Assembly: GCA_016748015.1 (NCBI GenBank)
Contig: JAAOMT010000718.1
Coordinates: forward strand, 372,001 to 436,000
DNA from: Geosiphon pyriformis uo1
Taxonomy: Eukaryota > Fungi > Glomeromycota
Reading direction: 5' to 3'
Length of the DNA: 64,000 bases
The notes below the pieces were generated by a model that worked only from the letters and a program-made list of their open reading frames with translations, did no database searches and was not told the DNA's origin. Positions 34,871-62,835 of this stretch are shown here, one piece after another. The translations under genes were made by a program, and so were the position numbers. The number at the start of each line of letters is the position of its first letter. Position 1 is the first letter of the stretch.

Positions 34871-34989
34871 TTTTGGATTAGTTTTATCTGATCAGAGTTT
34901 TAATTGTACTTTTTTTTTGTTTTTTAATTCTATTATATCTAATAATAAAAAGCATGCTATTTTTTTAGCTTGTGTTCCACAAAGTCATA

Positions 34990-36233
34990 AAAATACTACA
35001 TTTTATAATAAGCTTATGGTGCTTAATTAATATTATGTAAATGATAAAAACAAATCAAAAACTACAAAACATTTTAAGAAAAACAGTTTTTTATACATAA
35101 AACAGTTTTTAGTTTTAGCTTAAGTCAAAGATGAACCAAATTTTTGTCTATAAGCAAATATAATACATAATTTAATTAGCAAGTATATATACATAGTATG
35201 TAATCTTAACTTTAATAAAGCACTTGTTATTTTTTGTTTAAAAGACAGAATTACATGAAATGATACTTATTAGAAATATAATTTGAGCTGTTGGCATAAA
35301 GTTCTATAATTAATTGAATATTTCAGAAGATAAGTACCAAAAACTATCTAATAGCTGATTTAAAAGCTTTAAAAACCATGTTAAATTACATTTATTTTAT
35401 TTTTATGATAATATATTATTAGCCAATATTGAATATATTAAAAATAAATAAATACATATAATAATATTTCTTGTTAATTGAAAATTATATAATATTTTTA
35501 ACATGGATAAAACTGCACCATTTTATGTTATATTACCAAATTAAGATTTTGCTATAATATTATATTATAATATCAAACAATCAAAAGTGCAATTAATACT
35601 TGTTTTTACAATTAATGTTGATAAAACTGAGTATTTATTATTATTTATTATTGGTTATACTAAACATCTATGCTGTTTTTAAAAGAAAACAAAAAAGCAA
35701 CTTGGTTTTCAGTATTATTTAAACACTTATGTTTAGATAATTGATAATATTTTTCAATAATAGCTTGTTGATTGGGACTATTAACTACATAAAAAAAACC
35801 AAAACATATTGTTATTAGTAAACAAATTTGCTAATTATAATTATAATATAAAATCTATTACAAATATTTATGTAAAACAATTTGCATCTAACTTAACAGC
35901 ACATATTTAGTTTATGAATATTAAAATTATTTATTGTTTTAAGGCATATTATTATTGCTATTTTTTTTATTATATATTGAATTTTTTTGATAATAATATT
36001 AATAATATTTATGTAATTAACCAACTTTAAGCAATATGTCTAAACATAGAATATAAAAAAATGTTTTAAATAAAATAATTACTTATTGTTGACACAAAAT
36101 TGGCATTTTTCTAATTAATACAAATAACAATTTTTAAAATAAAACTGCAAATTTGGAAATAATAACTAATTATAATCAAAAAATAGTATTAGAAAAGATT
36201 AAAAATTACTATAAAAAGTTCAATTATATACAA
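34990..36233 (+). pseudogene. Heavily mutated pogo/Tigger (CENP-B HTH + DDE_1) transposase relic, interrupted by element A; probably resumes after 62117
   Basis: KLSNS*FKSFKNH (~FSNGWLxxFKxRH), NIFNMDKTAPFY (~FNMDETGLFY), SKVQLILVFTINVD, KQLGFQYY, NILLLVNKF (~LLLVDN), FASNLTAHI*FMNIKIIYCFKAYY (~PNxTxxLQPMDxGIIxxFKxxY), ITYC*HKIGIF. Confidence 0.8.
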
Positions 36234-39200
36234 TATTATAGTTCAAGAATTTAATAGGAATTATAAATAATATAAATTAGCCAATCATAAAATAACACAG
36301 CAACAATTTATAAAAAAAAATGATTTACAAATAACAACAAGCATATTGTACAAAAGCAGCAAGCACTATTTCACAATAGCAGCAAGTACTATTTAGAAAT
36401 AATAGAAATAGAGTATTACAAGACGTTATTTTGTAAAACAATAATTATATATATATACAATAGTTTTTAATGATGAAGAAAAAACAGCTTCAACTAAAAA
36501 CAACAAATATCTAAATAAAATCTTATTCAAAAATAATTAATAAAAAAAAATAATAAATTGAATAAACATCACAATTACAAGATTAACAATAGAATTTACA
36601 TATCCTTTCTAGCAAATGAAACTATCATTCCATCTTTGAACCTTTTGGAAGAATAATTCCTGATCAAGATTATTCATGTAATTACTAATTAAATTAAAAA
36701 AGCTTTATTATATACTTAGGAAAATCACGAAAAAGCCATTAACATTCTATGTTTTTAGATTAAAAAAACACATTAAGCAATTGCAAGAATAGCCTCAGAG
36801 AAGACCCCAAACAGTGGATAGATTTCAGATTAGCCTCTGGGAAGGAGTATACAATATACAAAGACAACTAGAATTAAAGAAAAGACTTATATCACAATAT
36901 CAAGAAAAAACCTTCAGTACATTATTATTAATATCCAACACATAAAATTGAGAAACTCACAAGAGACTGATTGTGATTAAAACAGAAGATCAACAATTAA
37001 AATATACTAAGAAAACACTCCCATAACATTTGGTAAACCCTACAAGGAAAAAAAATCAAAAAAAAATAATAATTAGCAATAATTCATTGCTAAAAAAGAA
37101 GAAACAAAAGTGGCAACAAAAACTCCTAATCTCACTGTTGTTGAATTCTGCCATGCCCTTTATTTACAACATTAAAGTAATTTTGGATTACCAGAAAAGT
37201 GTTGTTCAGCTGAAAATGCCCTCACTTATTACATTAACATTAGAATAAATTATCATATAAAAAGAGAAAAAGAACCAAATGATGCAAAACATCAATTATA
37301 TAGGGAATTATCTCAATTTACTACAAAAGAAACAACAGCATTAGCTGTGACTATTGTTCAAATTCATTGTAAAATTGAGCAATACGTCAATGAAAATTAC
37401 CCAATATCCACAAAAAACACTAGAGAATGCGTCCATAATTCAGAAATTAATCACGAAAAAAATCAGTAAAAATTAAGAACACTCATTCAAATGCTTAAGA
37501 AAAACGATGTGCAATTAGTAAAGAAACAATGCCTTCATTCGCCAGAAGAAAGATCTTACTATTTTTCCCCAGATAATAAAATCCAACTTCTATTAGGAGC
37601 TGTATTATCATTTACATCAATCCCAGAAATGCTGAAAACTCCTAATTACACTGAGAAGCTTAAACAACACAATTGGGGAGATATACCAATTACAGAAGGA
37701 TATTTATTGCTATTCTAAAAACTCTTTTTTCAACCAAAATTTGGAGCGGAGTTTGAAAACCATGAAGAGGAGTCTGAATCAGAATCCGAAGAAACCAGTG
37801 AAAAAACAAGCATAAGACCAGTCACTAAAACAAGCAGCCAGTTTAGAAACCAAGAAACTCATGATCAAGAAGAAGAAGTAATACATACCAACCATCTTAG
37901 AGATACAACTAGGAATTCAGCAGCAGCCAAAATAATCACTTGTCGCACCAGAACTTCAGAACAGAAACACATGCCTGCTATTTTTACAAATGTGTAGAAC
38001 ATTTGATTAGTCAATGTCAAATGCAAATAATGCATGAAAGACATGAGAATAATTATTACGTGCCACTCCAAATGCCCAGGAATTAATACACACCAATACC
38101 ATGTTAATATCCCACCATGTACCAAAATCAAGAAACTTATCAGCAACAGCCCAGAATAGCCAACCAAAATTGGCATTTTGAGTCCTGAAATTAGCCCATG
38201 TGGAATCAAAATGCGTTGGTTTATAAAAACCCAAACTGCATAGGACCTAATCAGCAAACAAATACAAACTACCCAAACTACCCAAATTTCTAGCCAATTC
38301 ACCTTAATATATCGGAAAACTTAAATCTCAGAAATATTAATGGTAATGTATCTGGAACCAAAAATATTACCAATGCTGACTGCTTGTTGCGAATGAGACA
38401 CACATAAAAAAAACAACAACCAATTCATAAACAATGGACAATTACCTTTACAAAAATCTTGGCCAATACTTAAAAACACTACAGCTAGATGAAGACACAC
38501 CAATAAAAGAACTAATTAAGTTCCAGAAATTATCAAAACATTATTTTATTCAAAACCACATACTTTATTACCAGAATTAACAAAATTCAGATAATTCATT
38601 GAAAGTTATAACCGAAAATAAAAAAAAAACTATCTTATTTAACATGCACTCAGATATCTATTCAGGCCACTTTGGAAAAGAAGCAACTATTCAATGTACA
38701 ACTAGTCATTATTATTGGCCAAAAATGCACTCAGATATTATCTAATACATAAAAAATTGTGACTCATGCCAATAAAAAGAAGGAACAAAAACAACAGAAC
38801 CACTAAAACCCATAAAAGTTGGACAACTATTTGATAAAATTGGAATTGATTTAATTGGACCATTACCAATAACAGCAAAAAACAATTATTATATTGCAGT
38901 AGCAGTAGATTATCTCACTAAATAGCCAAAAGCCAGAGCTATTCAAACAGCTAATGCTATATCCATAGCCTACTTTGTACATAAAGATTTAATTTGCTGC
39001 CATGGATGTTCACAAGAATTGCTGTCAGACCAAGGAACATATTTCATAAACAGTACACTAAATAAGCTTAGCCAAAGATTTAAAATTAAATAACCATTAT
39101 TATTACTATACCACTCCCAAACAAATGGATTAGTTGAATGATTTAACCATACACTATGTGAAGCATTAGCCAAAATCAGCAATGAACATAAAAAAGAATG

Positions 39201-39856
39201 GAATTTGTTCATACCATCAGTTTTATTAGCATATAGGACATTAAAACAAGATATTATAAAATTCACACCATTTGAATTGGTTTATGAAAGGAAAACCATA
39301 TTACTAATTGAACTTATTATTCTAACTTATCCAAATGAAATTATTACAGAAACAACATTCCACAAAACAATACTTAGAAGAACATATGAGTTAATGGAAA
39401 TTTTGGAGAACAAAAAAAGAAAAACAGCTCAAAATATTAAACAATCACAAGCACAACAAAAAGTGAGACATGATAACCAGTTATCAGATAATATAATTAG
39501 CTATAAAATAGGAAACAAAGTATTGTTGCATTGCACCAAAGCAGAAAAGCAATAGAATGGAAAGTTTGACCACAAGTGGGATAAACTATTCTATATTCAT
39601 GAAATACTTGGCAATGGAGCATACAAGTTAAGACTAGATGAGAAAATTTTAAGAAAAGCAGCACATGACAACCAGCTGAAATTATATTACAACAAACCAG
39701 TAATAATAATACAAACACTTAAAATTGGAACACAAATACTACTAGTATCATCAGATCAGATTCTGCAAAATTTAAAACCAGTAGTTTTAATTGAACATTA
39801 TATAAAAAGATAATTAATCTTAAATTACACCAAGAAACAGTTAACAAAGCATAAAA

Positions 39857-40450
39857 ATGTATGCAAAAGAGCCCAAAAAGCAGTCAGAAATTAAAACAAT
39901 GACATATATTTCAGAAAACATTAGTAAGTTAACCCAACAACTATGTCAAAACTTACAACAATCAAATTCAGATTTGAAAATTACAATCAATAGTTCCGAG
40001 ATATCATATAAAAGAAAAATTATACCAAATTCTATGATAAATGAGAAATCTAGTTTTGCACCATATATTATTATTGCCAAAAACAGTAATAGCTTTATCA
40101 ACAAAACCATTAAAAATTTAGAAATAGCATTAAACAATACATTGATAACAAAAGAAATAAACATAGTAGAATTAACACCAAGTATATTTAAACAGCTGAA
40201 GGAAAAATTCCCCATTAATTATTGTTATTACCAATTGGAAAAACAATTAAATATACAAACATTATACTCAAAAAATTCAGTTAAAGTATTCAGCAAAACA
40301 ATAATACAACAATTGGAAAGTTTTATTGGAAAAACCAACAATATACTTTATATAAAAGCTGTTCACAGAATTTTTAAGACTTTCGAAAACTGTCACAAAG
40401 TACTATTGGATCCAACTATGAATATTATAACAATTAATAGTATTGAATGA
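39857..40450 (+). pseudogene. ORF3 of element A (post-integrase accessory ORF); continues at 61162-61284
   Basis: 197-aa ORF cut exactly at the element C insertion site; homologous to ORF3 of B and C. Confidence 0.75.
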
Positions 40451-41319
40451 TGTTACAGATGATTATTTGGAGTCTCAAATCAAATAACAAATCTGTAACT
40501 TGGTGCTCAATATCTTGACAATACTGGTGTTATCAGTACATTGGTTGTATCTGAAGGTTTTAGCATTGAGTTTTTTGTATACTGAACAAAGATTCAATGA
40601 CAATGTAGTTGGTTGGTAAGTTGTGTTCCCAATTTTTGTCTTCAGCTTAGTGGCCGGTTTATTCTGACATTCATGCTCTTCTGGTAAGCTATCTGTTAAT
40701 ATATATATAATTTTACTCTTATTTCTGGGTTTTTTACCAGGCTATCTGTAATGTTAATTACTCAGTGCTTTAATCCTTAATCGGTTAATATACAACAATA
40801 AAATCAAGAAAAGAAATAAAAAAAAAATAAAAAAATAAGCCAAGACAATACACAAGTTAGTATTTATCAATAGCCATGATCAAGAGCTATTGTTCCAGTG
40901 TGGTTAAGTATTGATTACTATCAACATAAAGTGTTGATAATGAAGAGTGGATTTGGATGGTGAATGATTTATTTATTTGATATTTTTGGATGAAAAATTT
41001 CTAACTAAAAAATTCTGCTCTTTCTACTTCTAATATTACCACTATATATACATAATTGATGTTCTATAAGATTGCTCACATTCCCAAGCAATGTGCTATG
41101 ATTTCTTGAGCAATGCTCACATTGCTGAACAATGTGCCCTAATTTTCTAATATCACTTCATATTGCTGACATTGCTCCATATTGCTGAGCAATGTGCCAT
41201 GATTTCTAATATTGTTTTACATTGCTGAGCAATGTGCTTACATGCTAAATATTATTTTCTTATTGGTCTGCTATTTTCTATATCTGTTTTCTTTTTATAA
41301 GTAACATTATCTTTTCTTA

Positions 41320-41955
41320 TTAATATTGAGCTCCGTCAAAATTTTTGTTTTGAATTAATTTTAATACTTTTTTTTCAAGTATTGTTTGTTCGACTCTGTT
41401 TTTCATATTTTCTATTTGTGTATTGTTCATTCTTCCCCATTGGTTAATGGTTATGGTTTCTATGTCAGAGTGTAACAGTATTTCTGGATAGTTCTGAAAT
41501 ATGTTGTGTAGTTGGTAAATTGTTCTTATATGTAATGTTGAGTTTGTTTTTTTTCTCATAAATTCTTCAATTTGCTGTATTATGTTCTGGTTAAATATCC
41601 TCTTGGATTTGTTGATATATAACTCTTGAATATTCAACTTTCGACCTAATTGGTAGTAACAGTATGATATTGGAATTTGGTCTGTCCATTGCTTCTAATT
41701 CTCTTTTGTAAGTTTTTCTATTGGTGCCATAATAGGTATTTTCCCAAAAGTGTTTTTTACTTTTTCTATTATGTTATCTGACCAGTTTTTATCATTCTTT
41801 GGTAACTGCTAATATGGTGTATTCTTTGTCTTCTTTTTAGTGTTTTTATAGCAGATTGTTTAGTTGTTAATGATAATTTTCATGTTTAAAAGTTGTTGAC
41901 TTAAGGCCTAGAACAATTGTTGAGCTATAGTGTGAATATGATCTGGTATTTCCAT
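41320..41955 (-). pseudogene. ORF3 of element C
   Basis: MEIPDHIHTIAQQL...PISYCYYQLGRKLNIQELY...RTIYQLHNIF...FDGAQY; stop abuts the PPT. Confidence 0.75.
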
Positions 41956-44900: not shown

Positions 44901-45244
44901 TGTGGAAAATCTGGAATGTGGTTTGGTGGTTGATCCTCAACTTTGGTGGTTAAATATCCAATGATGGTTCTCTTTGGTATTTCGATGACTTTTCTAGTTG
45001 CATTATAGATGAGAATTTTGATGTTTTTGAGACTTTTAGCTGCTATGTAGAGATTAGTAAGTCCAATCTCCTCTGATTCACAAATGATGACTTCTGCTTC
45101 AAACAATTAAGCTTGATCTTTTATTTCCCTTTTTATGGCTAACATATACTGGTCATATGATGAAATAGAAATTGTTTGACGAGTTGAGATAATTTCTCCT
45201 TTGTCTACAATTTTTTTTTCTGCCATATTAACTGGTATGTCTAT

Positions 45245-45640
45245 TCTACCCATTGATCTAAATTCCTGTATCCCTCTTACTGTTATACCTAGTTCTTTCC
45301 TCTTTTCCACTGAAACTAACTGAGCTATTTTTACCAGAGGTAAGAATATTGCCTGTGCTATCTTTTCATTTGGCTTTATAATATAGGTCTTTTCTGAGTC
45401 ATTTTGTAGCATGGCGATGATATTTTCTATGTATCCTGCATCAATTATTCCTCCTCTGATGTTGATTCCTTTTTTCACTAAACTACTCTTAGATGCTAAT
45501 TGGATCATGGTTGTTGCTGAGATTTCCAGAGCTATTTTAAGATCAATACATGTATGCAAATTTGGTTCCAATTTAATGGCTTCTTTTTCTGAATATCTTA
45601 GATCAAACTCTGTGTTAGTATCATGTGCACATTCTGGCAT
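45245..45640 (-). pseudogene. dUTPase domain within element C pol
   Basis: Motifs I-V: EFDL, KSSL, GGIIDAGY, KIAQAI, RGIQEFRSMG. Confidence 0.9.
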
Positions 45641-46243
45641 AATACCTTTATTATTATTACTATATCATTTGAGTTCCTGCTTTTTAGAGAGATCAAGAAG
45701 TGCAATGTATATTTTGTGGTTTGAATCAGAGTCCGAATTATTGATATTTTTGTTGCCATATTGCATGGAGCTAGAACTGGTGTTTTCATTGTTGTCATTG
45801 TTGGAGTTTGAATCAGGATTGAAAACTGATTCCAATTCTGATACACAACTGCTGATTGGTTTCTCTTCTGGGATCATGTAGATCATGCATGGTAGTGGAT
45901 TGTAAATGAAGTCATACTCATTACAATATTGAAAATCACAGGGAATTAAGCAATATTGACATAACCGAGTATTTAACTGCTCTAAACACTGTTCTTGTTC
46001 TTCCCTGGTAGGTGCTAGCTCTTGGTAATATTTGTGGAATTGTTCTGGATCTAAGAGATTTATGACTGGTTTTGGGTCACAGTCAAGTTTTATAGGTTCA
46101 GATGGGTTATTTTTAATTGTTTTTATTTCTTCTGGGGTTGCTCTTTCGATTTTGGCAAGTGCCATTTGCCAGATTTTGTCATCATCGTGTGGGCATCCAT
46201 CTAGACATTTGATGGCTCATCTCTAGGCAGCATCTATGGACAT

Positions 46244-47132
46244 TGTTACAGGTGATTATTTCTGGTGTGGAAATAAATAAAAAACCCGTAACTTGGTGCT
46301 CAAAAGCTATTGATTTCTGTTAATGTTGGTAATCTGAAGGTCTTATGTGATCTGAAGAGTTTTGGTGGAGTTCTTTGTATAATGAACAGAGATTCAATGG
46401 TATTTGTAATAGTTTTCAGAATCACAATTCTGTCCAATTTCTTTCTCAGTGTAGAGGCCAGATTTAGTCTGGCAGTCATGCCCTTCTGGTAAGCTATTCA
46501 ATAATATATAAAATTCTACCCTTATTTCTAGGTCTTTTATCAGGCTATCCATAACGTCAATAATTCAGCACTTTTAATCCTTAATTAATTAGTATACAAC
46601 AACAAAACAACATGAAGAAAAAAAAGAAAAGAAAGAAAGAAAAGAAAATGAAATAAAGAAAATAAGCCAAGGCAATTTTGATTCATATCCTGTCAATAGC
46701 TGTGATCAAGAGCTATTGTTCCAGTATGGTTAAGTATGTGCTATTATCAACATGAAATGTTAATAGTTGGGAATAAATTTGAGATAATAAATTATTATTT
46801 ATTTAATATTTGTGATGTGGAAGGTTGCTTAAATTAAATCTAAACTGAAAGGTCTGCCTTTTCAGCTTCTAATACTACTGCTATATATACATAATTGAGA
46901 TTCCTCAATTCCTCAATTCTTTATAACAGGAATCCTGGAATTCCTGGAATCCTGTAATTCCTTTGAGAGGAATCCTGGAATTCTGGAATCCTGCAATTCT
47001 TTGTGTAAGAATTCTGTAATTCTTGGAATCCTGCAATTCTTGAAAGAAATCCTGGAATTCTACATTTATTACATCTACTTCTGATTGACTAATAATCATG
47101 CTAATATATTTTCTATATTTCTATGAGTAACA
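46244..47132 (-). mobile_element. Solo LTR D (C-related family) inserted in the Cys-rich domain of C
   Basis: TGTTACA...GTAACA termini; TSD ACAT/GCAT; shares R/U5 blocks with the C LTRs. Confidence 0.9.
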
Positions 47133-50100
47133 GCATTCCTTTTCTTATCCAGTCACTTATGACAATTGTGTATTAACACAACTCATTGCACATTCCTCCT
47201 TGTTCAGAAATGTCATTTCACATTCCTTTATCCAGAAAAGTTTCTCCACAAGCCAAGCATGGTTCATTGTCCCATTTTCCAACCTGTTTTGGCCTTCTAA
47301 AGTGTTTAATGATGTATGGGCAGCAGTAAAATTTTGTTGCCGAAGTGTATTCCTCATTGTTGCCATAATAAGCACCTATTAACGACAATTTTTTGTTGCA
47401 ATCAATGCATATTAGTTTAGATCAGTGATAGATAGACTGTTGTGATGGAGCGTAAGTGGCTGGAATATATGTGTTGTTAGCTTGGATGGTGTTTTTTTTT
47501 TTCTCTTTCTCTTTGTCTCTTCCTTTATCTTTTTCCCACTCTCAATTTGATGTTGGTTTGTTGTCATCATAGATAAGTAATTCTGATGATATGTTTCTGA
47601 GTTTGGTGGGTTATTTGGAATTTGAAACCGGCAATCAGGGTTTGATATTGATTTCCTGATCATTGGTTATTTAAGTGATGGCAGCAATCAATTTGTAGGT
47701 GTCCTTGTCTACCACAATAGTGGCAACCATGTGTTTTCTGTTGCCACTGTTGATTGGTCAATGATAATGGACGCTGTTACCAACTGAAACTTGAGATATT
47801 AATTAACATAATATTACCTTTAAAATTTCTACCATTAAATTAACATATATTATTGTTCAAATTATCACTTATTATTTAATCAAATTATTGAATATTATTA
47901 ATCAATTAATAACCTAATTTGTACTATAGAAATTAGAATAATCAAATTACACAATACTCCGAACTATTTAATATTCAAGAGTTCACCGAAATTTGTAGAA
48001 ATTCACCAAAATAATTAATAGTTCACCAAAATATTCAATAGTTTGTAGAAATAATTTGTAAGTTCGCCAAAAGGTATCTTTAGTTCGTTGAACTATAGTA
48101 AAGAAAATAATTCAAGTTCATAGACTAGTATTACAACAAGTTGTATAAAAAAAAAGCTTCTCTCTTCAAAAAAATGTATCTTTACCTTTAAATATTTTAC
48201 TTTAGATTTATCACTTAAAACCATTCCTATACACACAAAAAAAAATAAATATCAAATAATTCAAAAAACCAAATTCTTTAATTATTGCACTTGGAAAATT
48301 CTCAAAACCCAACTAACATTTTGAAATTGATTAGCTACCAATTTTAGTAAAACTGTTAGTGACCCCAGGCCTAGATAGAAAACGTTTCCCTTGATAAAAT
48401 CCTATTTTTTTTACATTTCTTTTATTTTTATTTTTTTTTCTTATTATCATTATTTAGGTAGCCTACAGACAAGATTCCTGTAGAAAAGTTGACTTTCACA
48501 GCAAAATAACTACACATTTTTATTGAGCTTTCAGATGAGCAATTCCTGGGAAAAAGTTGACATTTACTACAATGTAACTATACAAGTAACTGGCACAGAA
48601 TTGGCCATTCCACTTATAAGCCCAGCAGTTCAAATTATAGGAGATAATTTGAAGATAAATTCAGTTACTGGAGGTTCAACTACTTCCTGAAAACGTAAAT
48701 TTACAGCAAATCAACAGTAACAACATTCAAGAAAAGAGATCAAAAATCTCTGGTAACATTTGGTGCTCTCCCATGAAAATAACACAGTGACAACAACTTC
48801 AAAAGTGGCAACTCAAACAGATTCAAGAACTCTAAAGTATTATCAGTCAATCTACACTCACTGCAAGCAGAGATTTAATATCCCAGACAGAATTGAAACA
48901 TTCAAGAAAACACTTTACTAGTACATTGAAAATTATATCAACAATTATCTTTTTGGAGACTACAACATTTCAGAAGTTAAACACAACTTATATGAAAGCT
49001 TAGTACATCACTCTCATTTAAACACTCAGAATTTTAATAGTCAAATACTTGAAACATACTTCCAAGAACTCAACTTCAATATCATTCAGTATTGTGAAGA
49101 AAATTACCCAGTAGAACAGAAATTTTCTCTTAGTTTTGAATCAGAAACAGAAGAAGGGAAAAGAAAAAGGAAACAAAAACTCAGAACTACTCCAAATACA
49201 CCTAAAACCACTACCAAACATTTACAAACTCCAGAACAAGGAACCAGCTTTAAATTACCATTCTCAATCACACCATTTCCAGCTTCACTTGCTCAACTGC
49301 AAACACCAAGTTTATCACTTCTTTGGTTTTCAAGAATAGAAAATTTTCAGTCACCCAAAAGTCCTATTCAACAACAGAAACCAATATCAACCAGCACAAA
49401 TCTTATTGACTACTTAACAGAAAATCAAAGTGAAGAGACCAAATCAGAACAAGAAACAGAAGACTCAGAAAATGAAGAAGAAATGGCCTCCACATACATC
49501 ACAAAAATCCCTGAGTTCACAAGAGAAGACAGCAAAACCAGTCCTCAAGAATGGCTTGACAAAGTTTCAAAAGCAGGAGATGCAAATAGTTGGAATGCTG
49601 TCAAAATGTTAAAAGCAATTCCATATTTCTTATAAGGAATGGCTGACAAATGGTTTGAAAACTTGGAAGTTCTACCAAAAAACTGGGAAGCATTCAAAAC
49701 TGCTTTCCTAGAACAGTTCACTAACAATAACACTTCTATTACCCTTCAAAATCGGTTCTGAAATATCAAACAAGAACCAAGTGAATCAGTTATGACCTAT
49801 CTTGGGAAATTTAACAAACTGTTTAGAAGGATTTGCCAATTGGAAACCAATGAATACTACTCCAATGCACAAATCTTGGATCAATTCATTGCTGGATTAA
49901 AAGACAAACTTATCAAGAAAGTTTGCCCACATGTACCAGAAGATTTAGCCATTGCTATTCAACAGGTGAAAAACTATAAAATGGCCATGGAAGAAGCCAA
50001 CCGTACCAAACTTGTTAATCTGGCTATTGGAGAAACCAGCTCAGCAGCTGAAGAAAAAATTGACCAATTAACCAAAAAAGTTGAAAACTACTTTACCAAC

Positions 50101-52129
50101 CAACAGCAACAACAGCAGCTGTAGTAATCACAACAACTACAAAGATACCAACCTCTACAATGACACAATCAAAACAACTTTGGACCACCATCCAACAACC
50201 AAATCCAAAATTGTCATTATTGTGGAATTCCAGGACACTGGAAACACGATTGTAAAAAATTGCAATGAGACCAACAACAGAGGAATAATCAATGTTATTC
50301 CCAACCACAACAATCATATTATTCAGCACCACCAGCTCAATATTTACCAAGGTCACAATATCCAAACCACTATTATCAATCTGCTCCACAACCAATCCAA
50401 CAACAGTATCAACAACCATCTATACTACAATATTAAGTGCCAGCCAGAAGATTAATTCAACATAATCAATTTACACCACAAAACTATTTTTTAACAAACA
50501 ACAACAGATTTAATTCCAACAACCAATTAACCACTCAAAATTCGAATCAACATAGACCCACACACTATCACACTCAACCCAGTTATCTTACAATATCAGA
50601 GGAATCAAATTTTCAGCAAACTGCACTTTTTGAAGGTAAAGCTGCAGCACCAAGGCAAAACCCTTTCAACAATACTATCCCACCAGCCAGAATTGCTTGA
50701 AATGCCAATCTTTTAGACATTTTTCCATTCGAATTTGAAGCCAATGAATCACCATCTCTACTCAGCAATGTAGCAGTTAATAAACAAAAAGCTATTACAA
50801 CAATGTATACTGAAGCTGAAGTAGAAGGAAAACCAATTTGCTTAATATTAGACAGTGGATCTGCCAAAAGTATTATCATCTACCAATTAATGCAACAGCT
50901 TCAACGAACTGTTGACAGACCAGCTCAAACTGTCATCATTATGACAGATAGTATGAAGAAAACATTAGTAGGAGAAATTGATAATTTTCCATTTACCATT
51001 GATGGAATCATTATTCCAGTTAAAGTCCTAGTCATAGATGCACCCCAATACCAAGCTCTTATCAGAAATAATTGGCTTCTCAAGGCCAATGCAAATTTAG
51101 ATTGGGAAACTCAAGAATTAAAAATCTCATATCAAGGACAACACACTATAGTATTTGTTACATGTGAAACTTTCAACAAACAATCAGAAAAAGCCCCAGT
51201 ACTTGAATTTGAAGAAGAGAAAGAAATGCCACTCACTGAAATCTACATGGCTCTTGGATTAACATCCAATTGGGCTGAGGAAACAGAACAAAAAATCTTT
51301 GAAGAATCAAGAGAATAGAAGAAAGTTAGATATTTTACACCAGAACCATGAAAACAATCACTCTATATTCCACTTAAATGCAGAGATTGTAACAAAAAAC
51401 TTTTATCAATGAGAGTCTGCATTTCACCTGAAGAAGAATATAAAAATTATACTTGTTATTATTGCAAGGCTTGCCACAGAAAACAATGGGACCATCTAAT
51501 AAAAAGAAGTGGAAAATGGGACAACACTCCTTGTTTGACTTGTGGAGATATGCTACCAGAAGAATGCAATTGAATTGATGTAGCAATGAGAGGAGGAGTC
51601 TGTGATCAAACCTGCCAATATGCTTTATCAATCTCAGAAAAAGTCAAAAGAGGAACACCCTTTGAGGCAGCATACAACAGTGCTCTCAACAAATTTTATC
51701 ACTATCCCCATGATGCTGAGATGATTTTCGACCTAGCAATGGCATTAGTTAATGGAGCTGCCAAAGAAAATGTTTGTCAAATGAAAGAAGCAGAATACAT
51801 TGAATACACCTTAGAATTAGTTGGATTTGATTATGAAGATGAAGTAGAAGTCTATCATCAAATTGCAAGTCACACCTACCTGACCCAAGAAGCTCAAATT
51901 CAATGACTAGAGCAAATAAACATTAGACTATGCGAAGAATGCATAATGCCTTATGATGAACAGTGGTGTCCCGAATGCTATGCCCTTAGTATTTTCCTAC
52001 CAATCGAAGATGACCAGAACAAAATTGAATTCAGAACCTAAGAGGAAAAAATCCCAGTAATTCCCTTTTACCTTACCAAAAATCAGTCTGTCATAATACT
52101 CAATATTTTAACAATAAAAGACAGGGAAT

Positions 52130-52523
52130 TAAGCCCAAGAAAGCCCATGAGATTGACACTGGATATGATCTAAGATACCCAGAAAAAGAGACCTTCATCC
52201 TTCAACCAAAATCTCTTACAAAAATCAACTTAAAAATTGCCCTTGAAATTCCACCAGGAGCAATGATACAAATTGTCTTCCAATCCTCCCTGGCAAGCAA
52301 AAAAATCAATGTAAAAGGAAGAATTATCAATGCTGGATATACTGGAGACATCACAGTGATGCTTCAAAATGAAACTGACAAACCATTCAAGATCGAACAT
52401 GCTGAAAAAATTGCCCAAGCTATTTATTTACCCCTAATCCACATTTCGAGTTTGCAACTAGTCAATTAAAGAGAACAATTAGGAAAAAGTAATAGAAAAA
52501 CCCAAGGTTTTGGTTCAACTGGA
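52130..52523 (+). pseudogene. dUTPase domain within element B pol
   Basis: TGYDL, QSSLA, GRIINAGYTG, KIAQAI, RKTQGFGSTG. Confidence 0.92.
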
Positions 52524-55500
52524 TGATTCACAGTTCTAGTTAATATAGCTCTTAACACACAGAATGAATCTTACCAGATTCTCAGACTTCCACAACCAAT
52601 TACCATCTTATCCTTTGGAGAACATCATGAAATCTATACCTGTAAGAAACCCACTACCACTCAACAAATCTTCGAATCCAATAAACAAATCTGCACAAAA
52701 CATGACATTTCAATTCCAAACATTTACATCCCAAAATAAATGAAGAAAGTCTGAGTCACTTTTTACAATCCCAACCACTACTTTATCATTTTATTAAATA
52801 ATTTGGAAATCGGAATTATTTACAGTAATATCTTTCAACAAGAATTACTCCAAACAGTTTTTAACTTTTTGGAAATTATTGAACATTCTCTCCTCAGAAT
52901 AAACCCAAAACCCAGTTCTGAAAACTATCACATTGTTGTTGAAAAATTATTTCGAATCAACATGGGACAACTAGAGTCCCAACAACAAAACCAGCTTAAG
53001 GAGTTAATCGTAAAACATGCAGACATATTTGCTGAAAACAATAATGATTTAAGAAGAACTGATTTGGTCCAACATCAAATCTACACAGGAGATGCCAAAC
53101 CTAGGCAACAACAAGCATACCGAGTTGCCACAGAAAGCCACCAATTTATTTGAAAAAAAGTTCAAAGAATGCTCAACAATGGGCTCATCCAACCATTAAT
53201 GAGCCCATGAGCTTCACCAGTAGTACTTGTTAAAAAGAAAAACGAAAAAATCTGATTTTGTGTTAATTATTGACAACTAAACAATGTCACAATTGGAGAT
53301 GCCTACTCTCTTCCCTGAATTGATGATATGTTAGATGCACTTGGAAAATCCAAATACTTTTCAACATTAGATTTAGAAAGTGGATACTGGCAAGTTGTCA
53401 TGGATCCCAAGGATTGCCCCAAAACAGCATTTACAACACAAAGAGGAAACTACAAATTCAATGTAATGCTCTTTGGATTATGCAATGCGCCAGCAACATT
53501 CTAAAGACTCATGAATGTTGTATACACTGGACTCCTTTGGAAATCAGTAGTTGTCTATCTTAATGACACTGACGTTTATTCCTCATCTTTCGAACTTCAT
53601 TTAATTCACCTGTGAAAAGTTTTTCAATGATTATGAAAAGCAGGATTAAAATTAAACATTGAAAAATGTCATTTTGGAAAAACAAGCTTGGCCTTTCTTG
53701 GTTACATAGTTAGTGGAGAAGGAGTCAAACCAGACCCAAGAAAAATCAATGCTGTTAAAAATTTCAAAGTTTCACAGAATACCACAGAATTAAGAGAATT
53801 TGTTGAATTAACTTCTTATTATCGGAAATTCATCAAAAGATTTTCGGAAATATCAAAACCTCTTAACCAGTTCAACACTAAAAACACCGAATACAAATAG
53901 ATGGAAAAACACCAAAATGCCTTTGAAATACTCAAAGAAAAGCTCATTACAGCTCCAATTTTTGCTTATTCAGACTTTAGCAACCAATTCCAATTAGCCA
54001 CAGATGCCTCTTATACTGTCTTTGGTGCCATCTTATCATAGTTAGATGACAATGGCAATAAATGAGTAATTGCTTATGTAAGTAGAACATTAAAACCAGC
54101 AGAAAAAAACTATCCAGCAACAGAATTAGAGACTGCAGCAGTAATATAAGCCTTATACTACTTTGACCTTTATCTCAAATCTAAGGAATTCAATATTATT
54201 ACTGATAATATTGGACTTAAATGGTTACAAAACAAAAACATGAAGTTGAATGCAAAACAAACCAGATGGACAGAATTTTTAGCAAATTACCAATATATAG
54301 TACATCACAAACTAGGAAAACTCTACACTAATGTTGACTGTCTCTCCAGAATGAGACAAGATTAGAAAACACAAATCAACACTCAAACCTAACAACCAAC
54401 AAACAATGAATTTAAAAGACTACAACAATCTCAAACAATATTTGAAGACATTAACAATCCCAACAGATTGGTCTTCAAATGAAAACCATTGATTACAACA
54501 ACAAGCCAGACAATATTTCCTACACAACAACATTATTTATCATCGAAATTTCAAAAATCCAGACAAACCATTCAGATTAATACAAGAATACAAAAAAGAG
54601 ACTATATTATACAACATGTACTTAGATCTTTTATCAGCACACTTTGGAAAAGACAACACCATCCAAAGAACACTAGAATACTATTTTTGGCTCCGAATGA
54701 GAAGAAACATACATCAATATGTTAAATCTTGTAATAGTTGTCAAAGAAGAGGAAGAACACACCCTACTGAACCTTTAAATCCAATCAAAGTTGAACAACC
54801 TTTTGACTGGGTTGGTATTGATTTAGTTGGACCACTACCTATCACCACACAAGGAAACTAATACATAGCAGTAGCAATAGATTATCTTACCAAATGGCCT
54901 GAAGCCAGAGCTATTCAATGAGCAGATGCAAAATCAGTAGCAAATTTTATCTATGAAGACATTATTTGTAGACATGGATGCCCAATTGAACTTTTATCCA
55001 ATCAGGGAACACATTTTGTGAACAACTTGATATAAGAAATTTGTGAACGATTTAATGTCAAGAAACTTTTATCTTCGCCCTACCATCTATAAACAAATAG
55101 ATTAGTGGAACATTTCAACAGAACATTGTGTGAATCACTAGCCAAAGTCTCAACAGATTTTGAGCAGAAATGAGATATCTTTATTTTATTAGTGTTACTA
55201 GCATATAAAACACTAAAACAAGATACAATGAAACACATACCATTTGACCTTACTTATGGAAGAACAGCAAAACTACCAATTGAATTTACAGTGGAAACAT
55301 ATCCAGTACAACCAATCACAGAAGAAAACTTACAAGAAACACTTCAGTGAAGAGCTTATACTCTTCTCAGTACTTTAGAAGAAAAAAGATGTATAGTAAC
55401 CATCCATATTGAAAATTCACAAGCCCAACAAAAAAAAAGACATGACAACAAACTGCCACCAGTTACAAACGAATTTAAAGTTGGAAATAAAGTTTTTTTA

Positions 55501-55910
55501 CACTGAATTAAGACTGAAAAACAATGGAGTGGAAAATTTGAACATAAATGGAATGAACCATTCTTTGTTCATGAAATCTTAGGAAATAGATTATACAAGT
55601 TAAGACTTGATGGAAAAATACTAGCAAAAGTTGCACATGGAGATTGATTGAAACATTATCACTCCAGAACACATCCTAAACTATTAATCTCACAAATTGG
55701 TACACATTCTCCTTTAATTAACCCCAAAGATATTCCATGAAATTTGGAACCAATAATTGTCATTGAACAACCTCCCAACTTGAACACTTCATTATTATAG
55801 TTATTCTCCTATAAAAATTCGGAAACAATCCTACAAAAATAACATAAAAATCCACATACCCAAAAATAATTTCACTTAGGAAAATTTTTAGTTTCTTAAA
55901 AATCATTATA

Positions 55911-56587
55911 ATGACTATTTCACAAAACATTTAACAATTATCCCAAAAATTAATGTTAGCTTTAAAAACAATACCTGAATTATCTATTACTATTACAGAA
56001 AAACATATTAATTATACTCAAACAGAAACAGTCACAACCTTATCTCCAAAATCACAAAATTATCACCCTTATAAAAAAAACACTAGAAGTTATTCTGGAA
56101 TTCACCTACCAGAACTTTTGAAGCTTGCCTTGAGAAAAAATTTGTTGCTCCCACCTATTGACATTTCACCAAATGCCACAATTCAACAAAAACTTTGACA
56201 GTGTCTTAATGAAGAAAACAATGAATATTTTTCAATCTATAGATATTTTCACATTGAAAAAACACTGCATGAACAAAAACTAGAACTCACAACAGCCAAC
56301 CTCACAAAAGAAGCCATTCAGAAACAATTTTACAACAAATTTAAGACAACAGCTGAACCAACAAACAGTTACTACAAACTTAGAGCAGCTTTTAGACTTT
56401 ATGACCTATTTCACACCTGTGAAAATGTTCTACAAAACCCAATTTTACAACTACTGAAGATCCAATACATTGGAAAACTCACAGAACTGAAATTTTAACA
56501 ATTTTCAGACCAAATTTCTTCAGTAATTTTGGATTACTATCTGGAATGTACAGATAGTACTTGGACTTCGATGGAGCTTAGTCTTGA
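55911..56587 (+). pseudogene. ORF3 of element B
   Basis: MTISQNI*QLSQKL...YRYFHIEKTL...LRAAFRLYDLFHTCENVL...IQYIGKLT; homologous to ORF3 of A and C. Confidence 0.75.
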
Positions 56588-59500
56588 GGAGGAGGTTATG
56601 TTACCAACTAAAACTTGAGATATTAATTAACATAATATTACCCTTATAATTTCTACCATTAAATTAGCATATATTATCATTCAAATTATCACTTATTATT
56701 TAATCAAATTATTGAATATTATCAATCAATTAATAACCCGATTTGTATTATAGAAATTAGGATGATTAAATTACACAATACCCTGAACCATTTAATATTC
56801 AAGAGTTCGCTGAAATTTGTAGAAATTTGCCAAAATAATTAATAGTTTACCAAAATATTCAATAGTTTGTAAAAATAACTTGTAAGTTTGCCAAAAAGTA
56901 TTTTTAGTTCATCGAAACCATAGTAAAGAAAATAGTTCAAGTTCATAAACTAGTACTACAACAAGTTATATAAAAAAAAAGCTTCTTTCTTCAAAAAAAT
57001 ATATCCTTACCTCTAAATATCTTATTTTAGATTTATCACTTAGAACCATTCCTATACACACAAAAAGAAATAAATATCAAATAATTCGAAAAACCAAATT
57101 CTTTAATTATTGCACTTGGAAAATTCTCAAAATCCAACTAACATTTTGAAATTGATTAGCTACCAATTTTAGTAAAACTGTTAATGACCTCAGGCCTGAA
57201 TAAAAAACGTTTCCCTTGATAAAATCCTATTTCTTTTACATTTCTTTTATTTTTCTTTTTTTTTCTTATTATCATCATTTGGGTAGCCTACAGACAAGAT
57301 TTCTGTAGAAAAGTTGACTTTTACAGCAAAGTAACTACACATTTTTAGTAAGCTTCCAGATGAGCAATTCCTGGGAAAAAGTTGACATTTACTACAACAT
57401 AACTACACAAGTAACTGGCACAGAATTGGCCATTCCACTTATAAACCCAGCAGTTCAAATTATAGGAGATAATTTGAAGATAAATTCAGTTACTGGAGGT
57501 TTAACTACTTCCTGAAAATGTAAATTCACAGCAAATCAACAGTAACAACATTCAAGAAAAGAGACCAAAAACCTCTGGTAACAACGCAACTGATTCTAGA
57601 AGCGATTTGCGTTTCCAGAATTATTGCATTGTTGTGGTGGTTGATAAATTGTGCAATTGTCAGCTAAGTATCCCTCTAATTTTTGATTGATGAACTCACT
57701 AAATTGTTTCAATTTGGAATCCAATTCAGATGATTCATTCATTACTAGATTAACTGCTTAAACATGGTTGACTTCTAATTCAGTGGCTTTAAAATCTCTG
57801 GTGTTTGTGATGGCTGCTTGCAGATCGACAGAATGCATTGGATATACACGTTGCAGAATGCTGCTATGTAATCCACAAATAAACTGATTTAGGATCTGGG
57901 CCACTATGAAATAATTGGCATTGATGGCTTGGATCTAGTGCAGATTCCTGTGAAAGCATCCTAAATAAGTAGTGACTGCTTCATTTTCTTCTTGTTTGAT
58001 GGTAGTAAAAGTGTTTGCTAGCCTGTTAATGCTGTTATTATTGCTGAAGTATCTTAAGAACTCAATTTTAAATGCATTAAAATTTTGGGGTTTGTTGACC
58101 AGGCTTTGGTACCATGAATTGGCAGTATCCTGGAGAAAATATGGAATGGTTTGCATGGCTCTGGTGTCATTCCATCCATTAGCTGCAATGGCTTTCTTCA
58201 CATTATTTAGTTATACTTGGGCATCATCCTCTTCACTGGTAAATTTTTTGAGTTTGGTTATTGGTGTGTATGCTATTAGATCTAAGTTGGATTGTGATGG
58301 TTGTTGAAGTAATACTAGTGGCTGTTGAATCTGCTGGTGTGGTTGTTGTAGTGGCTGGCCAATTGGTTTAACTGGTGGTGAGTTAATAATAATAACAGGA
58401 GGTAGGTCTGGTTGATTAGTTAGATTGGAGTTTTGATTGTTCTGATTATACTGCATTTGAAAATTCGAAGTTTCAATTTCCGGATTTTTTAAATTTAGAT
58501 TTTGCTAAGTCTGAAAGTTCAGGTTTTTGATTTCTGGATTTTCAATGATCAGGTTCTGGTAAGTAAATTCTTGATCTTCAGAGTCTTGTTTCTCTTTTTC
58601 TTGGTCTTCTTCTGATTCCATTACTTCTTAGAGACTTGTGGTTCCGAAATCTGGTTGGAGTAGTGGAGATTAGAGTCTTAATGACATAGGTGATTGAGAC
58701 TTAAATCCTTCAAAATACACGCCATATGGTCCTAGAAGATCTTTTTTCCTTTGTTTACTCTGAAATAGAAATTGTCCAAAAGTTGATGTTATGTTTGATA
58801 TAGACACACCTGTAATATTGATGGCACTTCTGGGTGTATAATAGTATAATAGATTAGTTGGTGATTCAACTCTTGTTTTCTTTCAAGTGGGTGGTGTATC
58901 CTTTAAAGTGTTACTGCTGGTGTTTGTAATTTTCCTTTGCCTTTGTTTGCATAGATAATTGGATATCTTTGTTGAGTGTGAATTTCAATTTCTTTATTGA
59001 TTTTAGTGAGAATTGTTGTGAAATTGTAATTTGTTGGTAGGCTGGTATTCTGGATTAATTCATTGTAGAAGTTTCCTCTGGCTGAGTCAGTTTCTACTAG
59101 TACTCCTAATAAATATAAGATTATCTTGTGGACATAGAAATTGAAAGCTAATTCTGCTGATAAGTGGTTGTCGATTAATCTTAAATGTTAACAATAGTGT
59201 TGGAATAAAGATTTTGCAAATCCTAAATGGTTTGTCTCTGTTTTTTCAGATTCTGTCACTGTTTGAATGGGTGTTATTGGTGCTGGTTCTCTGTAGGATT
59301 ATACCTCACAGGGAGTACCAAATATTACAAATGATTATTTGGGGTCTCAAATCAAATAACAAATCTGTAACTTGGTATTATCAGTATGTTGTTTGTATCT
59401 GAAGGTTTTAGCATTGAGTCCTTTGTATAATGAACAGAGATTCAATGACAATGTAATTGGTTAGTAAGTTGTGTTCCCAATTTCTGTTTTCAGCTTGGTG

Positions 59501-59882
59501 GCTGGTTTATTCTGGCATTCGTGCCCTTCTGGTAAGTTATCTGTTAATATATATATAATTTTATCCTTATTTCTAGGTCTTTTACCAGGCTATCCATGAT
59601 GTCAATTACTCAGTGCTTTAATTCTTAATTAGTTAATATACAACAATAAAATCAAGAAAAAAAATAAGCCAAGGCAATATGCAAGTTAGTATTCATCAAT
59701 AGCTGTGATCAAGAGCTATTGTTTCAGTATGGTTAAGTATTGATTACTATCAACATTTTATATTAATAGTAAAGAATAAATTTGGATGGTGAATGATTTA
59801 TTTATTTGATATTTTTGGATGGAAGATTTCTAACTAAAGAATTCTGCTCTTTCTACTTCTAATACTACCACTATATATACAT

Positions 59883-60883
59883 TGTTACCGGAGGTTTTTG
59901 GTCTCTTTTCTGTAATGTTGTTGATACTTATTTGCTGCGAATTCACGTTTTCTGGATGTGGTTGAACCTCCAGTAACTGAATTTATCTTCAAATTATCTC
60001 CCATAATTTGAACTTGCTAGGCTTATGAGTGAAATGGCCAATTCCATGCCAGTTGCTTTATGTAGTTATGTTGTAGTAAACGTCAACTCTTTCCCAAGAA
60101 TTGCTCGTCTGGAAGCTCACTAAAAATGTGTAGTTACTTTGCTGTGAAAGTCAACTCTTCTACAGGAATTTCGTCTGTAGGCTACCCTAATAATTGTAAT
60201 AAAAAAATAAAGAAAAATAAAAGAAGTGTAACAGAAATAGGATCTTATCAAGGAAAACGTTTTCTATCCAGGTCTGGAGTCACTAACAGTTTACTGAAAT
60301 TGGTAGCTAATCAATTTCGAAATGTTAGTTGGGTTTTGGGGATTTTTCAAGTACAATAATTAAAGAATTTGGTTTTTCGAATTATTTGATATTTATTTCT
60401 TTTTGTATGTATAGGAACGGTTTTTTTTAAGAGATAAATCTAAGGTAAGATACATTTTCTCGAAGAGAGAAGCTCTTCTTTTATACAACTTGTTGTAACA
60501 CTATTCTATGAACTTAAACTTTGCTATTTTCTACAATTTTGTTGAACTAAAGATACATTTCAGCGAACTACAAGTTATTTCAGCGAACTATTAGATATTT
60601 TGGTAAACTATCAATTATTTCGGCGAATTTCTACAAATTTCGGCGAACTTCTGAATGTTACATAGTTTGGAATATTGCATGATTGATCATTGCAATTAGG
60701 TTACATTTGTGTTGTGTACAATTTGAGTTATTAATTAAATGATAATTTCAGACATTTTTTTTTTTATTTTATTTTTTTCTAATGTAATAAGTGATCATTT
60801 GGAACGATAATATATGCTAATTAATAATAGGAATTATAAGATAATTTCATGCTAAATAATATCTCTAATTTCATCTGGTAACA
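59883..60883 (-). mobile_element. Solo LTR of the B family inserted in the 5' LTR of C
   Basis: Reverse-complement homolog of the B LTRs; perfect TSD ACAT; retains many CpGs. Confidence 0.95.
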
Positions 60884-62835
60884 ACATAATTGATGTTCTA
60901 TGAGATCGCTTACATTTTCGAGCAATGTGCTATAATTTCTTGAGCAATGCTCACATTGTTGAACAATATGCCCTAATTTTCTAACATCACTCCATATTAC
61001 TGAGCAATGTGCTATGCTTTCTGACATTGCTCCACATTGCTAAGCAATGTGCCATGATTTCTGACATTGCTCTACATTACTGAGCAATATGCTCACATGC
61101 TAAATATTATTCTCTTATTAGTCTGCTATTTTCTATATCTGTTTTCTTTTTATGAGTAACAATAATTAACCAATTTACAATTTCAAAATTTACAACAACA
61201 AATTAATAATACAGTATTAGATTATTATAGTAATATAAAAATCAATAAAAAAATTAACTTTGATTTTAACAGAGCTCAATCTTGAAAAGAAGAGATAATG
61301 TTATAGTTCAAGAATTTAATAAGAATTATAAATAATATAAATTAGCTAATCATGAAATAGCATAGCAACAATTTATAAAAAGAAATAATTTACAAATAAC
61401 AGCAAGCACTATTTTACAATAGCAGCAAGCATTATCATGCAAAAGCAGCAAGCACTATTTCATAATAGCAGCAAGCACTATTTAGAAATAACGGAAATAG
61501 AGTATTACAAGACATTATTTTGTAAAACAATAATTATATATATATACAATAGTTTTTAATGATGAAAAAAAAACAGCTTCAACTAAAAGCAACAAATATC
61601 TAAATAAAATCTTATTCAAAAATAATTAATAAAAAAAAACCAATAAATTAATAAACATCACAATTACGAGATTAACAATAAAATTTACATACTCTCTTTA
61701 GTAAATGAAACTATCATTTCATCTCTGAACCCTTTGGAAGAATAATCCCTAATCAAAATTATTCACATGGTTACTAATTAAATTGAAAAAGCTTTATTAT
61801 ATACTTAGAAAAATCATAAAAAAGCCATTAATATTTCGTGTTTCTAGATTAGAAAAACACATCAGACAATTGCAAAGATAGCCTCAGAAAAGACTCCAAA
61901 CAGTGAGTAGATTTCAGATTAGCTTCTAAAAAGGAGTACACAACATACAAAGACAATTAGAATTAAAGAGAAGACTTATATCACAACATCAAGAGAAAAT
62001 CTTTAATACATTATTATTAATATTTAACACATAAAATCAAGGAACTCACGAAAAACTGATTGTGATTAAAATAAGAGATCAACAATTAAAATATATCAAA
62101 AAAACACCTCTGTAACAACAGTCTAATTATATATACTTATTAATTAAAGAGTTAATAAATTTATTTGAAAAAACAATATAATTACTTTGAAATATTTGAA
62201 TAATAATAAGATTATAAATTATCTTATAATAAATTATAAAACAAAGCATAATAGTTCTGATAAAGAACAAAAAGTAAAAATAATGAGTATTAAGAATATA
62301 TTAACATTTTTTACAAATTTTAAACAATTTATAAAGCTTAAAAATAACAAAAAATTTTATGATACAACTAATAAATTTGTTTATATTTTATAAAAAATAT
62401 AAAATAAACAAAAACAAATAACTTTTACAAGTTTTTTTAATATTACATAAACTATTTAAAAAATTTTATAAGAATATGTAAATAATTTATTTTTTAATAA
62501 TATTATATCTATTTTTATTATATGTATACTATATATATTTAAACTTAAAAAAACCTATAACCTATAATAATTTATAATAATTTGTATTTACCAAGAAAAT
62601 AAGTTATCTCAAGTTTAATTGAACTTAAAACCTATTAACCCAACAATTTTAAACTTAAAAAATTTTAGTATAATTTTTTTTTATAAATTAATAAATTATA
62701 TTTTAATTAATATTATTTTATTAGACTTAGTAAAAACAAATTTTAATAATTATTTTTTAATTTATATATATATTTATATACTTTATATTAATATTTATTA
62801 TAATATTTATTTTTATAACCAATTTTTTAATTTTG

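Follow-up and report, generated by a model that had tools for sequence, protein, structure and literature searches.

LTRs of four retrotransposon families in one stretch of the Geosiphon pyriformis genome carry a hairpin with a self-complementary loop, which raises the question of what such a structure does and whether it acts as RNA. The stretch analyzed here, referred to as the window, is 64 kb long. A first-pass annotation had likened the hairpin to the dimerization initiation site (DIS) of HIV-1 and had proposed that its loop hexamer determines which families are packaged together. We think it reasonably likely that the hairpin is an RNA dimerization (kissing-loop) signal, convergent with, and not homologous to, SL1 of HIV-1.

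Nested elements and their hairpins

The region from 36.2 to 62.1 kb of the window is a nest of decayed Ty3/gypsy elements, in which gag, protease, dUTPase, reverse transcriptase (RT), RNase H, and integrase domains were found. Element A (plus strand) encloses element C (minus strand), which in turn holds the solo LTR D, a full-length B element, and a solo B-type LTR. The order of gag followed by protease, RT, RNase H, and integrase, together with TG..CA LTRs, a PBS, a PPT, and a target duplication, places these elements in Ty3/gypsy. All elements of the nest have LTRs ending in TG..CA, with one change each in the 5′ LTRs of A and C, and the target duplications are 4 bp long, exact for both B insertions and with one mismatch each for A, C, and D. 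The parts of the nest needed below are as follows.

36234..37028 (+): 5′ LTR of A; the 3′ LTR of A is at 61299-62117
46244..47132 (-): solo LTR D, ~70% identical to the C LTRs
47775..48758 (+): 5′ LTR of B, TGTT..AACA, with a 4-bp target duplication shared with the 3′ LTR at 56599-57583
48759..56598 (+): internal region of B with gag, protease, dUTPase, RT/RNase H, integrase, and an extra open reading frame (ORF), interrupted by stops
48761..48778 (+): PBS-like TGG... stretch of B, ~430 nt 3′ of the loop hexamer
50212..50253 (+): zinc knuckle CX2CX4HX4C in the broken gag of B, coordinates counted from the alignment
59323..61161 (-): 5′ LTR of C, split by the solo B-type LTR (59883-60883); the 3′ LTR of C is at 40451-41306

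Differences between paired LTRs are nearly all transitions (64 of 67 in B and 84 of 85 in A), and the observed/expected CpG ratio is 0.20 in the nest versus 0.91 in the gene-rich part of the window. This transition bias and CpG depletion suggest that defects in single copies are probably the result of decay after insertion. LTR sequence has been reported to make up 41.2% of the Geosiphon genome (PMC11952901). Where the two align, the protease region of B agrees at every position with a G. pyriformis protein, and all of the 120 relatives listed, out of 264, come from G. pyriformis.

Several other features of the window and its elements were observed. The solo B-type LTR (59883-60883, minus strand) interrupts the C 5′ LTR immediately ahead of its TATA box. 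Element A (37029-40450 and 61162-61298) seemingly lacks the protease-RT-RNase H part and may be an internal deletion or a non-autonomous element; one could speculate that C and D, which have the same hexamer, supply A in trans. A dUTPase lies between protease and RT in B (52029-52469, plus strand) and in C (45107-45664, minus strand), and no match to it was found in the scanned ORFs of three relatives (L020, L042, and L048). An additional ORF separates integrase from the 3′ LTR at 39845-40450, at 41320-41694 (minus strand), and at 55935-56498, and one also follows integrase in relatives (L001:2456-3145 and L017:4809-5498); it had no Pfam match, and an Atlas look-up returned nothing for it. Outside the nest, a 57-nt tandem array occupies 34151-35005 in adjoining, very AT-rich DNA, and an ORF at 1015-2895 (plus strand) has a Pfam match to alginate lyase (E = 6.7e-12).

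The hairpin is present in all eight LTR copies of families A, B, C, and D in the window, and seven of these copies are intact. On the sense strand, it is built of a 7- to 8-bp stem and a 9-nt loop comprising 2 nt, a palindromic hexamer, and 1 nt (2+6+1).

36651..36675 (+): A 5′ LTR hairpin, loop CC-UGAUCA-A
40868..40892 (-): C 3′ LTR hairpin, with a U-G closing pair
46694..46718 (-): solo LTR D hairpin, with a GAA/A internal loop and a lower stem
48312..48360 (+): B 5′ LTR hairpin, lower stem ACTAACA/TGTTAGT (48312-48318/48354-48360), upper stem-loop 48323-48345, loop AU-UAGCUA-C
48332..48337 (+): loop hexamer TAGCTA of the B 5′ LTR, a palindrome
57148..57170 (+): B 3′ LTR hairpin
59697..59721 (-): C 5′ LTR hairpin, loop CU-UGAUCA-C
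60296..60318 (-): solo B-type LTR hairpin, 7-bp stem, all Watson-Crick
61740..61764 (+): A 3′ LTR hairpin, decayed

The first-pass annotation had located these eight sites correctly, with 60296-60318 reading on the minus strand. Its two G>A changes in the A 3′ copy were borne out, the other seven copies keeping the 2+6+1 palindromic loop, and its ACTAACA/TGTTAGT extension of the B stem was found as well. It was mistaken about a family-specific palindrome for three of the four families, as A, C, and D all have UGAUCA, with UAGCUA in B. The nucleotides flanking the hexamer are mostly pyrimidines (CC/A in A, CU/C(U) in C and D, and AU/C in B). The GAA/A internal loop, which had been ascribed to both A and D, folds over a lower stem in D and in the A 3′ copy but not in the A 5′ copy or in either copy of C, and the internal loop below the upper stem of B differs from it.

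A sequence-blind scan of both strands of the 64-kb window (stem of at least 7 bp, at most one G-U pair, and a hexamer with at least two G/C), with criteria set after the motif was known, returned eight matches; the LTRs, 7,166 bases in total, hold seven of them, each on the sense strand, and one lies elsewhere. Loops with symmetric spacing (1+1, 2+2, or 3+3) gave no match in the same window scan. Among 1500 dinucleotide-shuffled versions of each LTR, a match appeared in 5 for the A 5′ copy, 9 for the B 5′ copy, 12 for D, and 4 for the C 3′ copy. Isolated segments of 71 to 76 nt were mostly no stabler than their shuffles (z = +1.17 to -2.73, with only the solo B copy below -2), so the evidence for the hairpin lies in recurrence and compensation and not in stability.

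The same arrangement could be read as a dyad site in DNA, be it the target of a homodimeric factor, a cruciform, or a single-stranded DNA hairpin, with a role in transcription or reverse transcription. It is a near-perfect inverted repeat of 25 bp, and folding of the opposite strand likewise predicts the stem for several copies (0.9 to 1.0 in the solo B copy, C 5′, and D). However, TGATCA and TAGCTA, taken with their arms, have little sequence in common, and the dyads of hexamer and stem are half a base pair apart, the sense strand reading 2+1 in every case, which suits RNA better than it would a symmetric site in DNA. The U-G closing pair of the C 3′ copy, which pairs on the sense strand only, also speaks for RNA, although a single pair, and one at a CpG site, counts for little; its G is the commoner allele (~53% of C-like contigs), and no change of at least 33% is listed for its partner. 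We regard a DNA-level site as distinctly unlikely.

Covariation, conservation, and range

The A and C/D hairpins align in register and without gaps, and three of their eight stem pairs are altered on both sides, with 39 of 40 cells pairing. The claim that the stems differ and yet pair is supported: the covariation score was matched by 7 of 500 shuffles, and controls slid along the sequence pair at 17 to 48%. The number of pairs altered on both sides did not by itself exceed that of shuffles (276 of 500). The five rows of this A/C/D set amount to two lineages, and the kinship of the rows inflates the other measures.

Family B cannot be aligned to A, C, and D by sequence (MAFFT displaces it by 7 columns); its hairpin is homologous by position, with the register anchored on structure. 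In the register of the loop, B and the A 5′ copy differ by double changes in four of the seven innermost pairs. The hexamer of B departs from UGAUCA at four of six positions, equivalent to two compensated intermolecular pairs, with the palindrome kept. Because there are only three lineages, this compensation rests on one contrast, for which a rough estimate of the chance probability is 0.02 to 0.05.

The families diverged long ago. DNA identity between their integrases is only ~67 to 69%, and the best local matches among the A, B, C, and D LTRs are short AT-rich stretches outside the hairpin, indicating that the shape of the hairpin outlived its sequence. A quick integrase tree (78 of 84 rows, leaving out six rows shorter than 200 aa) gave the topology (B,(A,C)), with a support of 98 for A plus C, B outside, and L001 in the sister position (99), in agreement with the distribution of the two hexamers. 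Between the C 5′ LTR and D, the hairpin is 100% identical (7 of 811 windows were equally good) versus 71% across the LTR, and it ranks first in conservation between C and D (100% and 92%, versus ~70% overall). Within B, it is no conservation peak (242 to 265 of ~960 windows were equally good), nor is it one within A.

Contig data gave a similar picture for C. In run X1, from which the window itself may derive and in which depth does not equal copy number, summed contig depth peaks on the C hairpin (0.70 to 0.84M versus 0.02 to 0.18M in adjoining bins); on the B hairpin, it is the second highest of 30 bins, one of several peaks. Across 1058 contigs, a single variant over the solo B hairpin reached at least 2% (G-C to G-U in the closing pair, 3.5%) and none fell in the hexamer, a table of little weight that apparently covers the middle of the stretch only and missed an expected change at the edge. 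Derivation of TGATCA by CpG decay was considered and rejected, with no allele of at least 33% at those positions and four of the five A/C/D copies identical.

Templated repair yields double changes without selection, and the hairpin might accordingly be a functionless quasi-palindrome whose symmetry is kept by template-switch repair during reverse transcription. The double changes seen here are possible by that route, and the z-scores of the isolated folds are unremarkable. Repair of this kind would, however, tend to even out the 2+1 asymmetry, yet three lineages have it in identical form; such repair is also at odds with a position fixed relative to the TATA box and AATAAA and with the hairpin's first rank in conservation between C and D. 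We consider this the least probable of the alternatives. The hairpin is a real, selected structure.

The hairpin had been described as conserved in all LTR families, which holds for the four families of the window but does not extend to more distant relatives. A metagenome scan for integrase relatives yielded the best 80 of 96 loci. In 12 related LTRs (8 complete and 4 partial), folded from the TATA box onward, no 2+6+1 palindromic loop was found; two of the 12 carry some palindromic hexamer in a loop, and the sole geometric match in a pattern scan of these LTRs (in L013) was AU-only and did not fold. The 12 folded LTRs belong to other integrase clades, and the closest relative, L001, is uninformative on the hairpin because its sequence stops 58 nt past the TATA box, before the expected site. 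The hairpin therefore looks restricted to one clade, on thin sampling. Pattern scanning of the metagenomes for the C/D hairpin gave no matches; viral contigs gave none to the B hairpin and no integrase relatives; prokaryote genomes gave two loci, both irrelevant; and Rfam (positions 35500 to 64000) gave six weak, unrelated matches at E ≤ 10, none at the hairpins. In a literature search with most subscription journals outside its coverage, no description of the Geosiphon hairpin was found.

The related LTRs have features of their own. Three of them (L013:3025-3075, L017:6065-6100, and L020:25-60) share, as read by eye, a hairpin whose lower stems differ and still pair, with a RAGCGCC..GGCA core and non-palindromic loops. 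In the U5 of L010, L013, L021, and L046, an 8-nt stretch recurs ~40 to 60 nt before the LTR end; in the first three, it repeats part of the element's own PBS and is possibly a second primer contact.

Placement in the leader and predicted pairing

The position of the hairpin in the LTR is constant. In all eight copies, a TATA box precedes the hexamer by 166 to 215 nt; the hairpin lies 155 to 205 nt past that box, close to the 150 to 200 nt given in the first-pass annotation. AATAAA lies 88 to 109 nt upstream of the hexamer, also in all eight copies, so that the hairpin is ~80 to 100 nt past it; the end of the LTR and the PBS follow ~360 to 465 nt downstream of the hexamer. In the B 5′ LTR, these motifs are as follows.

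48144..48150 (+): TATA-like box, putatively in U3, with an equivalent motif in all eight copies
48244..48249 (+): AATAAA, likely poly(A) signal, putatively in R, 88 nt before the hexamer

LTRs have a standard U3-R-U5 layout. Combined with this layout, the order of TATA box, AATAAA, and hairpin suggests that transcription would start past the TATA box and that 3′ cleavage would follow AATAAA, which would probably place the hairpin in U5, so that each genomic RNA would have one copy of it, in the 5′ leader. If 3′ cleavage instead came downstream of the hairpin, near a T-rich tract, the hairpin would lie in R and its 5′ and 3′ copies could kiss, circularizing the RNA and aiding minus-strand transfer. 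The T-rich tract 3′ of the hairpin in B, C, and D is compatible with such a position, whereas A has no such tract and AATAAA precedes the hexamer in every copy; in 11 of the 12 related LTRs, moreover, AATAAA follows the TATA box at 54 to 177 nt, the twelfth LTR being incomplete. A location in R is thus very unlikely.

Other repeated and paired sequences occur in U5. In B, a two-copy direct repeat (48455-48610, plus strand; 60032-60188, minus strand) carries a short inverted pair in each copy, the arms of which have changed and still pair; these are candidate tandem Gag-binding stem-loops. A TAGCY motif is found 120 to 210 nt 3′ of the hexamer in all families (59440-59600, 46400-46560, and 40590-40760 on the minus strand; 36780-36850 on the plus strand), and in C and D two copies of it flank a 7-bp helix. 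A switch between the hairpin and long-range pairing with the downstream TAGCY was rejected, the complementarity not exceeding that of shuffles (z = 0 to -1.6).

Under the dimerization reading, the leader would have to fold the hairpin with its loop free. In a 451-nt leader, imposing the open-loop hairpin is predicted to cost 0.1 to 0.8 kcal/mol in six of eight copies, 3.1 in the A 5′ copy, and 1.6 in the A 3′ copy, and the stem of the B 5′ hairpin has a pair probability of 0.98 in context. With a 200-nt span limit, the stem was lost in A 5′, C 5′, and C 3′ (P ≤ 0.21); the hairpin is opened in the consensus folds computed for C/D and for A and retained in that for B.

Two genomic RNAs could then pair loop to loop through UGAUCA or UAGCUA. 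Both hexamers have two G-C pairs, and their self-duplexes are weak, at about -5 kcal/mol and ranking 34th and 37th among 64. Predicted loop-loop energies are -6.4 to -7.0 kcal/mol for self pairs, -6.7 to -6.8 for A with C/D, and -1.7 to +0.3 for B with the others. Gag/NC, represented by the CCHC knuckle found in the nest, may melt the weak, A-U-rich stems to give an extended duplex, which is predicted to be ~10 to 12 kcal/mol stabler than two hairpins for self pairs and for C with D, 3.7 to 5.8 for A with C/D, and at most 2.8 for B with intact others; the dimer would then be packaged. Because the geometry of a kissing complex is outside the ViennaRNA model, these duplex energies are guides only. 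As predicted, only B would be excluded at the kissing step, and A and C/D would become separable only at the extended-duplex step. Partner choice may thus have two tiers, in which the hexamer bars B from A, C, and D and the stems favor self over A with C/D. The earlier proposal that the hexamer sorts the families would therefore apply at most to B against the rest and not to A against C/D, whose loops are predicted to pair as self pairs do.

The weakness of the hexamers also fits a different function, that of an intramolecular leader element, such as a Gag-binding packaging stem-loop or a TAR-like protein site, with an incidental or secondary palindrome. Other U5 helices with changed but paired arms agree with such an element, as do the by-eye hairpins of L013, L017, and L020 with their non-palindromic loops, and the extra ORF without a Pfam match that follows integrase could encode the protein of a TAR-like site. 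What tells against it is the hexamer itself, which is altered at four of six bases with its self-complementarity kept, whereas a loop read by a protein would conserve sequence and not symmetry. We therefore judge an intramolecular element unlikely and retain the dimerization signal as our interpretation.

Comparison with known dimerization systems

The resemblance to SL1/DIS of HIV-1 holds for the spacing of the loop. The DIS loop consists of two purines, a hexamer, and one purine, with a G × AGG loop beneath (PMC10483063), and the Geosiphon hairpin likewise has a 9-nt 2+6+1 apical loop (in seven of eight copies) on a stem of similar length. Shared as well are a 5′ leader placement, which is putative here, a CCHC nucleocapsid, and two alternative hexamers across lineages. 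A purine internal loop below the stem is seen in D and the A 3′ copy only (two of eight copies), with a 3 × 1 form (GAA/A) that is the reverse of G × AGG. The resemblance does not extend to the flanks, which are not purines, or to the base composition of the palindrome, which has two G-C pairs compared with four to six in HIV-1; the G-C pairs are central in UAGCUA only, and UGAUCA has central A-U pairs. Replication of HIV-1 is poor when the palindrome holds more than one A-U pair, and the virus needs G-C pairs at the center of the hexamer and purines beside it (PMC5874298). Nor does the position agree, as SL1 lies in Psi, 3′ of the PBS, and the Geosiphon hairpin lies inside the LTR, upstream of the PBS. 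With the spacing alike and the flanks, GC content, and position different, the hairpin is not a member of the SL1 family but may work like one.

In HIV-1, the DIS governs recombination between subtypes, and a DIS mismatch reduces it (PMC3187697). A more far-reaching reading, which we offer tentatively and think doubtful as a whole, is that a fungal gypsy clade independently evolved an HIV-1-like 2+6+1 kissing loop in U5, with A-U-rich, pyrimidine-flanked palindromes of a kind that HIV-1 does not tolerate, and that the switch between UGAUCA and UAGCUA forms a co-packaging barrier isolating lineages within one genome. If this is true, the 2+6+1 loop would be a recurrent structural solution and not a lentiviral peculiarity, weak palindromes would suffice, and the Geosiphon genome would be a natural test of dimerization signals as recombination barriers between co-resident families.

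Other systems share parts of this design. MuLV has self-complementary leader hairpins, SL-A and SL-B, in which loop contact leads to an NC-driven extended duplex (PMC5874298); unlike those of Geosiphon, its palindromes are 10 and 16 nt long and are aided by GACG tetraloops, none of which were noted in Geosiphon. RNA dimerization of LTR retrotransposons is described as little known (PMC6844567). In Ty1, PAL1/PAL2 (SL1) form an A-U-rich, self-complementary hairpin in the 5′ untranslated region that gives an extended duplex with Gag (PMC6844567). The Geosiphon hairpin is similarly A-U-rich and self-complementary, but the Ty1 palindromes make up the stem under a non-palindromic 3-nt loop, and Ty1 belongs to the Ty1/copia superfamily.

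The closest parallel in element type is Ty3, a member of the same superfamily, in which the DS/PAL6 palindrome, a hexamer in the apical portion of a small hairpin, is needed for dimerization in vitro and a kissing loop has been proposed (PMC11381356). A hairpin-borne, apical hexameric palindrome is thus common to both. In contrast to the Geosiphon hexamers, PAL6 is GC-rich (CUGCAG) and lies at nt 391, among palindromes of the 5′ end that extend into GAG, and UAGCUA is one of five Ty3 palindromes without a dimer-linked change (PMC11381356). The portion of the Ty3 account considered here describes neither covariation across families nor a 2+6+1 geometry (PMC11381356). The Ty1 and Ty3 examples are single elements mapped by mutation, and the Geosiphon candidate was picked out by natural compensation across families. 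Because palindromic dimerization in Ty3 and Ty1 has already been reported, the kind of signal is known, and the Geosiphon hairpin adds a variant to it.
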